Positions 47,601 to 50,600 of a stretch of 64,000 bases of DNA are shown in pieces. Source of the DNA: Saccostrea echinata (taxonomy: Eukaryota); the NCBI RefSeq assembly GCF_033153115.1, contig NW_026889761.1, forward strand, positions 11,470,001-11,534,000, given 5' to 3'. A program made the translations under genes and the position numbers. A model generated the notes under the pieces. The model was not told where the DNA came from, searched no databases, and worked only from the letters and a program-made list of their open reading frames with translations. Positions within the stretch are counted from its first letter, which is position 1; the number at the start of each line of letters is the position of its first letter.

Positions 47601-50600
47601 GAATTAAACCAAATCGCAAACAATTTCCAGCAAAAGAACGGATTTCCAGGGATTGCTGGTGCATTAGATGGGACTCATATTAGAATAGCAAAACCAACAA
47701 ACCATGGAGATTCATACATCAATAGGAAGGGATTTCCTTCCTTGCAGTTACAAGCGGTATGCAAGGAAGACATGATGTTTACTCATGTATTTACCGGATT
47801 TCCAGGAAGCTGTCACGACGCAAGAGTTCTTAGGAATTCCGATTTATGGGAAAATGGATTACAAATGATTCCAAATATATACCATATCATAGCTGACGCA
47901 GCCTATCCACTATGAATATGGCTACTCACTCCCTACCGAGACAATGGTCACCTGACACACGAGCAACGCCGCTATAACAACTACCTGTCCAGCAACAGAA
48001 TGGTAATTGAGAGAGCATTTGCTCTTCTGAAGGGTAGATTCCGCCGATTGCGTTTCCTGGAAACCCAGAAAATTGAGTATGCTGTCAATATTATCATGAC
48101 CTCTTGTGTTTTACATAATGTCTGCATTTTCAACCATGATGAAGTAGACGATTTCATTCAGCAAGATGTTATTGCAGCAAATTATAATGTTCCAGGAATC
48201 CAGGACTGTGAAGCCCAGGGTGTACAGAAACGTAATCAAATAGCCAGGAATCTTTTGTGATAGGCTAACTTCAGAATGAATGCATCATGTTTTTAAATAT
48301 CATATTCAATAAAGAATACAGTAACTGTTCAATACAATTTAATACAGAAAAATATAACAATGTAACAAAACTCAACAAAAGATGTCAAATCGAACTTATA
48401 TGTTTTTTTATGTAAATAAAACTATGGAACATGTCAAAAAGAGTAAGATATATCTTGACAGGTATTTAAAGTCAGCTGTAAAAAGTCCTTTACAGATTAA
48501 TTCACAGATGGTTTTGATGAAATTTAGAGTGTAATCCATGTATTAAGACTACATGCCACAAACATTCTTTTCCTTACAGCTTAAAAGATAATAACAACAA
48601 ATAATACTTAAGTTCAATATATCATGGTCATGGAAGAAAAAAAAGATTGTTTCTCCAATAGACATTGCCATAAATGAACGTAATACTAGGTCAAAAAATT
48701 AATCATTCATTGCAGCTGCCTATACAAATCCACTTATAGATTCAATGAATCTACCCCCCCCCCCCCCCCCCATTTCACCTATTCGTCAAAATTATTTTTT
48801 AACACTTAAGTTTAAGAGAATTTAGTTTTCTAAGCAATAAATATTACAAAAATTTTACTTAGTTCTCAATTATGTCCATCAATGAACTTGGTTAGGGACT
48901 CAAATAAAGCAGGCTGGTGCATTCAAGCATCCTTTAAAAGTCACAAGATTTGTAATGTATAAAAGCCAAACTATTTCTTTAAAAAAAACTATCTAGCCAC
49001 TCTTAGAATTGTGGGTAAACAACTGCAAACAAAGTTTTTTTTAGCTGTAGCCAAGTCTAAATTACATGTAATACATTATCCATCCATGTTTTTTTTTCAG
49101 TTCCAAGCAAGTAATCATGAACTAATGTAGAAAAAAATGTTTAATACTTGGACATAATAAAATAGAAAAATGATAATGAAAATAACCTATTTGGGAGTTT
49201 GTAGTAAATAATAAAAACTATTTGTTAAATTGTACCAAAACAAAATAAAAAATGCAAACAATTCTGACTAGCAATTATCCAATAACAGTTTGTGTAATGT
49301 ATAGTACATAGTTGAATTTTCAGGAGAATAACTTTTCCTCTGCAAGAAAAAAAATCAACAAACAGATGAAACAAAAACAACTGCATTGCTTTCAGTGATA
49401 AAATGAAATATTGAAAATCCTACCACAAATACTTTGAAAAGTTTTATGGCACAACTTAGAACAAGTTTTAAAAAATGAAAGAAGCCATTCACTATTTTGT
49501 GCCCTTGTGGTTAAGAGTCTATGTAAAAAACACTTTAACTTTTTTCGCAATTCTTGATCTGCATATTGGACAGACTTCTAGAGCTTTGCTGCATGGAATA
49601 CAGCACACAAGGTGGCCACAGTCAACAAACACTACTTCTTTTGGATGACTTTCTTCCATGCAGATTTCACATTCACCTGAAAAGAGATTATATCAACAAA
49701 AATTAAACAGGAGTTCCTATGCGCAAAGTCAAGATCATGTAATATGTAATCTTTAACATGGAGTAAGAACTTATAAATGGATTAAATGTAACAATAGTAC
49801 ATGATTGTACATGTATTGTAAAAATAATGACCAAACGCATGTAATGAAATGTTTCCTACTCTTTGATTTCAAGGAACTTAATGTGTACATGTATTTAATA
49901 TAATAATGTTAAAATTAAAATTAGATAATTCAATTCTCTAAGGATTTATACAAAAAGTACAAGTAAATACATGTAATAATAATTTTCAGCCATATGCATA
50001 TTTTAATTTTATCATGTAAGGATATTTGTGCTGAGCCAAGGTAAAAGGAACACAACACTCACTAGTGATGTGCTCCCATTGTCTCAATGAGTTTTTTCAT
50101 CAAATCCATCTTTTCATAATGCATTTTTTCTTTACGCTCACTTTCCTCCTTTCTTCTTTTTTCCTGATTTTCAATGAAGTTTTTCATTACATCAATGACC
50201 TCTGTAGAAGTAGATGTAAGCTTTCTTTTCTTTGGATTAGTACCTGAGCCTGATGGTGTGGGCGTAGACGACCTTGAACTCTCATCGTCACCATCCTCTG
50301 AATCGTTGGGAACTTCTGCAGAAATTTTGGAGTCAGTGCTACAGGCAGTTACTTCTGGAGTAATGGCAGGATCTTTGGAATATATTTCATCCAATTCAGA
50401 CTCATATTCAAAACGCTTTCTTCCAGATCCACTTTTCTTCTTACTGTCTTTGACTGCTTTGTATCCTCTCTGCAAAGTCTTCCATCTCCCTGAGACTTGC
50501 TCATGATTATAGGAGTATCCTTCATCTTTCATCCCTGTGGCAATTTCCTCCCACATGGTTTTCTTCTTGATCAAACCTTTCTTAATTTTCTCTTGATATG

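Follow-up and report, generated by a model that had tools for sequence, protein, structure and literature searches.

A splice donor inside the Myb stop codon of a PIF/Harbinger-type transposon in Saccostrea echinata, and a probable second, RING-coding isoform of the same gene

The window, the whole stretch of Saccostrea echinata DNA that was analysed (64,000 nucleotides; contig NW_026889761.1, positions 11,470,001 to 11,534,000), contains a PIF/Harbinger-type transposon with a Myb gene whose stop codon carries a splice donor. The splice that splits this stop codon (50063 joined to 49676) is real, and the donor is functional. It is probable that the stop-codon donor joins the Myb message to a RING exon as an untranslated tail, and that an upstream donor drops the Myb domain, with the RING exon then coding for a predicted ubiquitin ligase. 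The split stop codon alone is an ordinary piece of gene structure. The Myb/RING gene has the following features.

51605-51701, minus strand: exon 1, coding part, with the first CxxC..HxC zinc finger (Pfam zf-C2H2, E 0.0013, under the cut-off); phase-1 donor at 51604
51014-51190, minus strand: exon 2, with the second CxxC..HxC finger; phase-1 donor at 51013
50063-50699, minus strand: exon 3, long form, with the Myb/SANT domain (PF13837, E 1.3e-14) and a helical C-terminus, ending in the TA of the split stop
50646-50651, minus strand: internal phase-1 donor TAG/GTATGT just before the Myb domain, read from the sequence; predicted donor of a 159-aa RING isoform
50057-50062, minus strand: donor GTGAGT inside the Myb stop (TA/G), seen in the sequence and used in three of four runs
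49677-50062, minus strand: GT-AG intron of 386 nt, skipped in contigs
50002-50007, minus strand: candidate intronic polyA signal ATTAAA, 55 nt past the Myb stop (sequence only)
49519-49676, minus strand: RING exon, coding part, an IAP-type C3HC4 RING (PF13920, E 1.7e-11) with a hydrophobic C-terminal tail, phase 1; untranslated in the Myb message

The Myb open reading frame ends on the minus strand with CAC (50067-50065), TA (50064-50063) and GTGAGT (50062-50057). The RING exon starts with G at 49676, after an acceptor TTTTCAG that ends at 49677, and TA plus G gives TAG. Both points had been read correctly in an earlier note on this DNA. The G at 50062 serves twice, as the last letter of the genomic TAG and as the first letter of the donor; the removal of this GT-AG intron, which splits the stop codon, itself forms the Myb stop. 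The arrangement is rare in the window: TAGTGAGT occurs once, at the Myb stop, among the 1614 TAG triplets on both strands. TAG is followed by TGAGT at one of the 1614 triplets and by TRAGT at two, with a dinucleotide expectation of 0.1-0.3% per TAG. The first eight letters of the intron (50055-50062) and the first eight letters of the RING exon (49669-49676) agree at seven of eight positions on the minus strand; spliced and unspliced messages therefore both read TAG TGA past the last His.

The other first bases of the RING exon would also stop the frame: A gives TAA, and C or T gives Tyr, with TGA as the next codon. Since the frame ends within one codon whatever the first base, the rebuilt TAG needs no fine tuning and is near trivial. 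The earlier note gave too much weight to this rebuilding; it is the position of the donor that likely matters, which would avoid nonsense-mediated decay. In human data (PMC13187750), what triggers decay is a junction that lies over 50 nt beyond the stop. Here the last junction falls within the stop itself and none follows it; the Myb message would escape decay if this human 50-nt rule applies, and one terminal exon might then serve both messages.

Contigs of four of the eight listed runs (X1, X2, X3 and X6) were aligned to 47150-53800; X1-X3 represent two studies. One contig in each of X1, X2 and X3 has a joint at 49672/50059, which skips 386 nt and has the ends CT..AC with the cut at +4. The skipped part is therefore exactly the intron 50062-49677. 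The short side of the joint has 26 letters in X1, 40 in X2 and 25 in X3, and four letters (GTGA) fit both sides. The RNA status of X1-X3 is a guess, and the joint carries the label 'between: not known'. Intron 2 is spliced out in X1 and X3, and intron 1 in X3; the transposase pieces of X1 and X3 begin exactly at the acceptor 47249 of the second transposase exon. These contigs therefore behave as spliced RNA. The 50063/49676 joint was not found in X6. The contig pieces of X1-X3 are about 1% different from the window, and the spliced contigs appear to come from sister copies of about 99% identity. The expectation that the donor is present in other copies is thus likely borne out, for close copies. 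The contigs also place the RING exon in the Myb transcription unit; the earlier note had argued for this from the rebuilt TAG, which by itself is weak evidence.

The Myb message might instead end mostly at an intronic polyA signal (ATTAAA at 50007 or 49899), which would make the Myb and RING exons alternative terminal exons and the split-stop splice a minor side product. The first of these signals lies shortly beyond the stop, and there is some contig cover within the 386-nt intron in X2 and X6. However, the assemblies of three separate runs, all of low depth, contain the spliced joint, the bin 49814-50035 is uncovered in X1 and X3, and X6, with pieces that also enter introns 1 and 2, looks like pre-mRNA or DNA. 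Premature polyadenylation as the main fate of the message is quite unlikely on this evidence. The ATTAAA at 50007 could yield a third, unspliced form of the Myb message.

The preferred reading, a splice choice between a Myb form and a RING form, is also supported by the RING exon itself. Its frame is unbroken and encodes all eight zinc ligands, spaced as in C3HC4, as well as the terminal hydrophobic tail, and its phase is 1, the same as that of the other donors in the element. The best PDB matches are the RINGs of cIAP2, BIRC7 and XIAP, and the exon was aligned also to cIAP1. The hydrophobic tail of IAP-type RINGs has a role in dimer formation. The BIR domain is absent, by Pfam, from the exons of the window and from the scallop form described below, so the RING protein is not an IAP.

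Three phase-1 donors toward the RING exon are present in the window: 51013 (exon skipping, 143 aa), 50651 (159 aa) and 50141 (Myb-RING fusion). The predicted 159-aa form aligns end to end with a 154-aa scallop RING form (34% identity, E 4e-32). The product of donor 50651 fits this scallop form better than the skipping product, with global scores of 246.5 vs 232.5, a small gap in low-complexity sequence. No RING-coding joint was found among the 15 of 19 joints listed for the contigs of the four runs; contigs give presence, not absence. Two features of X3 fit a second path into the RING exon but were not counted as evidence. The depths of its pieces (22.8 for RING, 5.8 for Myb, 9.7 for exons 1-2) were set aside because contig depth cannot rank exons, and the end of one contig near 50655, with the upstream donor only 3 nt further on, because a SNP would explain the break.

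The RING query was followed to its best 150 matches in 1.84 billion representatives. Among these 150, one protein also matches exon 2 (P0081, E 0.0016 within the set). It is XP_033740288.1 of the scallop Pecten maximus, an isoform X2. When its N-terminus was compared with longer proteins, one of 146 candidates matched, and this was a 306-aa Myb protein, isoform X1. Three consecutive RefSeq pairs (X1/X2) of this kind occur in Pecten maximus: XP_033730554.1/555.1, XP_033740287.1/288.1 and XP_033758990.1/991.1. The two members of a pair agree over their first 104, 83 and 104 residues, in this order of pairs, and diverge from there into SEK-GN (Myb, X1) or SEK-EC (RING, X2); one isoform X1 is truncated at 159 aa. 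The Myb exon of the window is 41% identical to XP_033730554.1, and its RING is 49% identical to XP_033730555.1. The first RING loop has 13 residues in the window and in scallop; among the best 150 matches, 6 have this length, 118 have 11 residues, and 22 are without the full motif. Myb was not found in the best 150 RING matches (99 of the 150 scanned with Pfam; phmmer with exon 3 on all 150, best E 0.13). These scallop isoforms are automatic RefSeq models and were compared as proteins only. The near-identical copies on three scallop scaffolds suggest a transposon. Folding the scallop RING form from its sequence by itself told little (mean pLDDT 35). A third relative (P0030 and P0163; 65 aa), with a RING of the same type, reads LYFS-ECVIC. 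It appears to be translated through a TTTTCAG-like acceptor of a phase-1 terminal exon, at the same codon.

The intact phase-1 frame and the scallop models suggest that the RING exon is likely coding in a second isoform. The transposon would then likely make a third protein, a predicted ubiquitin ligase. The earlier note had proposed the RING sequence as untranslated in one isoform and coding in the other, with a polyA site that both may share. The first half is seen in the spliced contigs; the second, which is absent from the contigs, is drawn from the frame and the scallop models. It might also be that the RING exon is now only 3' UTR in the element family of the window, with the split-stop splice real and the coding isoform lost or rare, as what is left of an IAP-like exon once captured. 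DNA transposons often contain captured fragments, and the sole joint into the RING exon among those listed for the contigs is the one that makes it UTR. However, the frame, the ligands and the tail are all intact even though the transposase of the window copy is broken, and at three scallop loci the corresponding form, from which this RING has diverged by about 50%, is annotated as coding. Minor isoforms also get dropped in assembled contigs. A purely untranslated RING exon is therefore unlikely, and a coding role in a second isoform is preferred.

A related Myb gene in Mya arenaria (40% identity; LOC128221284 X1/X2) is annotated with isoforms that diverge after residue 144. One continues as the Myb C-terminus, and the other turns into an F-box that scores above the cut-off (PF00646, 22.2 bits); a second locus, LOC128213984, has the same switch (P0001, P0003 and P0011 for the two loci). 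This hints that the Myb gene has been paired with ubiquitin-ligase modules more than once; the F-box isoform could also be a gene-model chimera. P0004 has an N-terminal finger like that of the window. The switch to an F-box tail past the Myb domain counts in favour of a Myb-RING fusion, a DNA-binding E3 made through the weak phase-1 donor 50141 (AAA/GTGAGC), which can be joined in frame. However, this donor is the weakest of the candidates (5 of 9 matches to the U1 complement), the contigs of X1 and X3 pass through 50141 up to the stop donor, and the scallop RING forms are without Myb. The fusion is very unlikely, and separate Myb and RING forms are the preferred products.

Searches for the DNA of related elements by Myb alignments gave 581 pattern matches in metagenomes, 299 in viral contigs and 229 in genome contigs, with none confirmed in any of them. 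The transposase gave three pattern matches in viral contigs, none of them confirmed. RING queries returned seven loci, none with Myb or transposase. Exon 2 had no match among longer proteins, and the atlas searches returned only leads scoring under 0.9.

The Myb/RING gene lies in an element with the following features.

45204-51837, no strand: PIF/Harbinger DNA transposon, 6634 bp, identified by its TIRs, Pfam DDE_Tnp_4 and Myb_DNA-bind_4, and empty-site contigs
45204-45215, plus strand: left TIR, 12 bp, 11 of 12 letters equal to the right TIR
51826-51837, minus strand: right TIR, 12 bp, 11 of 12 letters equal to the left TIR
45298-45410, plus strand: transposase exon 1, with an in-frame join to exon 2
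45655-47089, no strand: tandem array of a 156-bp unit, 9.2 copies, in the transposase intron
47249-48260, plus strand: transposase exon 2, with two in-frame TGA in the window copy (47313-47315 and 47913-47915)
44437-52571, no strand: multi-copy host repeat with inverted ends, in which the Harbinger is inserted (inverted arms; high contig depth at 51812-52921)

The genes of the element are convergent, with the transposase on the plus strand and the Myb/RING gene on the minus strand. The TIRs are short (12 bp) and their first letter is A or G, as PIF/Harbinger requires. A 3-bp TWA duplication is expected; the flanking letters are TAA on one side and TCA on the other, and the empty-site contig ends leave these three letters ambiguous. 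The empty sites show up in contigs of X1 and X2 that break off from the window at 51837 and continue with the flank on the left of 45204. The predicted product of the first gene is a Harbinger/IS5-type DDE transposase (PF13359, E 1.4e-19 and 6.6e-13) with 374 codons and two stops in the window copy, and the second gene has the Myb/SANT domain listed above. By these predicted features the element fits PIF/Harbinger as described in the available part of PMC4482050, the imperfect target duplication apart. Contigs of all four runs have sense codons at both stop sites (47314 and 47913). Together with the difference of about 1% from the window, this means that the transcripts are likely from intact sister copies. 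Intact and expressed sister copies of the element therefore likely exist. The 156-bp array is followed, within the transposase intron, by a GACG/ACAG microsatellite; the end at 47150-47189 is very high-copy in the runs.

The host repeat and the Harbinger lie within an intron of a PPIP5K-like gene on the minus strand, of which an upstream exon matches PPIP5K. The inverted ends of the host repeat are about 25 bp, and a palindrome with 36-bp arms at 52637-52770 was assigned to the same repeat. The host exons at 52922-53800 have zero contig cover in all four runs, and the runs may stem from a related species. An open frame in the PPIP5K-like gene (53304-53750, minus strand) contains five near-repeats of a 10-residue unit and also has no cover in the four runs. 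Elsewhere in the window, two long single-exon B-box frames, TRIM-like and one with an NHL repeat, lie on opposite strands (27170-28918, minus; 33510-34850, plus).

The strand of the RING exon is the same as that of the host gene. The RING exon might then be part of the PPIP5K-like gene, or the joint might be a genomic deletion or a template switch at the 4-nt GTGA microhomology, where seven of the eight letters past the donor equal the RING exon start. However, its position between the TIRs 45204/51837 places the RING exon within the transposon. The host exons on either side of the element are in phase 0 vs phase 1 for the RING exon, and are therefore unable to read it in frame. The skipped part ends in GT..AG, its pyrimidine tract is the best in the interval but one, and the scallop models link this RING type to the N-terminus of the Myb gene. 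A host exon or an artefact is thus extremely improbable, and the splice within the transposon gene is retained.

In the proposed mechanism, two donors would compete for the acceptor 49677. The observed joint from donor 50062 gives a 303-aa protein with two fingers and Myb, which ends at TA+G and has the RING exon as 3' UTR. A phase-1 donor to the same acceptor would give a finger-finger-RING protein of 159 aa (or 143 aa); 50651 is the most likely donor, somewhat better than an even chance, and skipping of exon 3 from 51013 is a possible second route. Both isoforms would bind one partner through the fingers that they share, and the RING form, a predicted dimerising E3 of the IAP type, would ubiquitinate that partner. 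By analogy, this target might be a host silencing or chromatin factor, which is ranked above the element's own proteins, both being tentative choices. The host silencing factor is favoured because of the accessory SET and TET proteins in other Harbinger lineages, as described in the available part of PMC12730594.

A wider scenario is considered less likely than not. A marine-invertebrate Harbinger lineage might use a split-stop splice switch to swap Myb for a ligase module, which would be a RING in the window and in scallop and an F-box in Mya. The E3 might destroy a host silencing factor or reset the transposition complex, and this third regulatory protein might be hidden among host genes annotated as 'LRSAM1/APD1-like' and 'trihelix'. 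If gene 2 also makes an E3 ligase, a single splice choice sets the amount of a regulatory or counter-defence protein that the Harbinger encodes. The E3 form would then have been kept over about 50-60% sequence divergence between Saccostrea echinata and scallop, and some annotated RING and trihelix 'host genes' in bivalves would be transposon isoforms.

The PIF/Harbinger elements (PHIS superfamily) are described as two-ORF elements in the available part of Han et al. (2015, PMC4482050). The window element shares with them its TIRs, short and with A or G as the first letter, the gene for a DDE transposase and a second gene that encodes Myb/SANT. It differs in gene 2, which encodes two zinc fingers at the N-terminus and has the RING as its last exon, likely giving a third protein, and in its imperfect target site duplication (TAA/TCA). 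In zebrafish Harbinger3_DR, according to the accessible part of PMC9710019, the Myb-like partner is required for transposition and binds the transposase and subterminal DNA. The window element likewise has a Myb-like second protein. In Repbase, the second gene of Harbinger3_DR is reportedly alternatively spliced into a short extra protein, and a zinc-finger protein is said to occur in Harbinger2_DR. The extra product of Harbinger3_DR is reportedly LanC-like, not an IAP-type RING as in the window. Repbase may already describe a RING form, and the splicing of Harbinger3_DR may be a precedent for the arrangement.

The papers listed by the literature search include none on a RING or ubiquitin-ligase isoform in Harbingers. 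The word 'RING' had no matches in PMC9710019, PMC12730594, PMC8437027, PMC4122938, PMC9392472 and bioRxiv 2026.05.26.728016. The bivalve transposon library PMC10294476, with 58 PIF-Harbinger consensus sequences, may hold RING-exon elements that are unannotated.

HarbingerS, with a SET methyltransferase, and the TET-bearing PHISTA are also Harbinger lineages that carry an accessory protein, which is thought to act on host silencing (PMC12730594, in its available part). However, theirs are separate genes for epigenetic enzymes, as far as that part describes them, whereas in the window the accessory module is a predicted E3, to which the Myb gene would give rise through splicing. The RINGs of the IAP/MYLIP/MDM4 type (PDB 3eb5, 4auq and 6hpr) have the same C3HC4 spacing, CPxCR motif and hydrophobic C-terminal tail at the protein end; the window form differs in that it is without BIR, has two small CxxC..HxC fingers instead, and has a first loop two residues longer. 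The Pecten maximus proteins 'trihelix GT-1-like X1' and 'E3 ligase APD1- or LRSAM1-like X2' have the same two architectures, with 306 and 154 aa vs 303 and 159 aa in the window. These scallop proteins, compared as protein models, are annotated as host genes and not as transposons.
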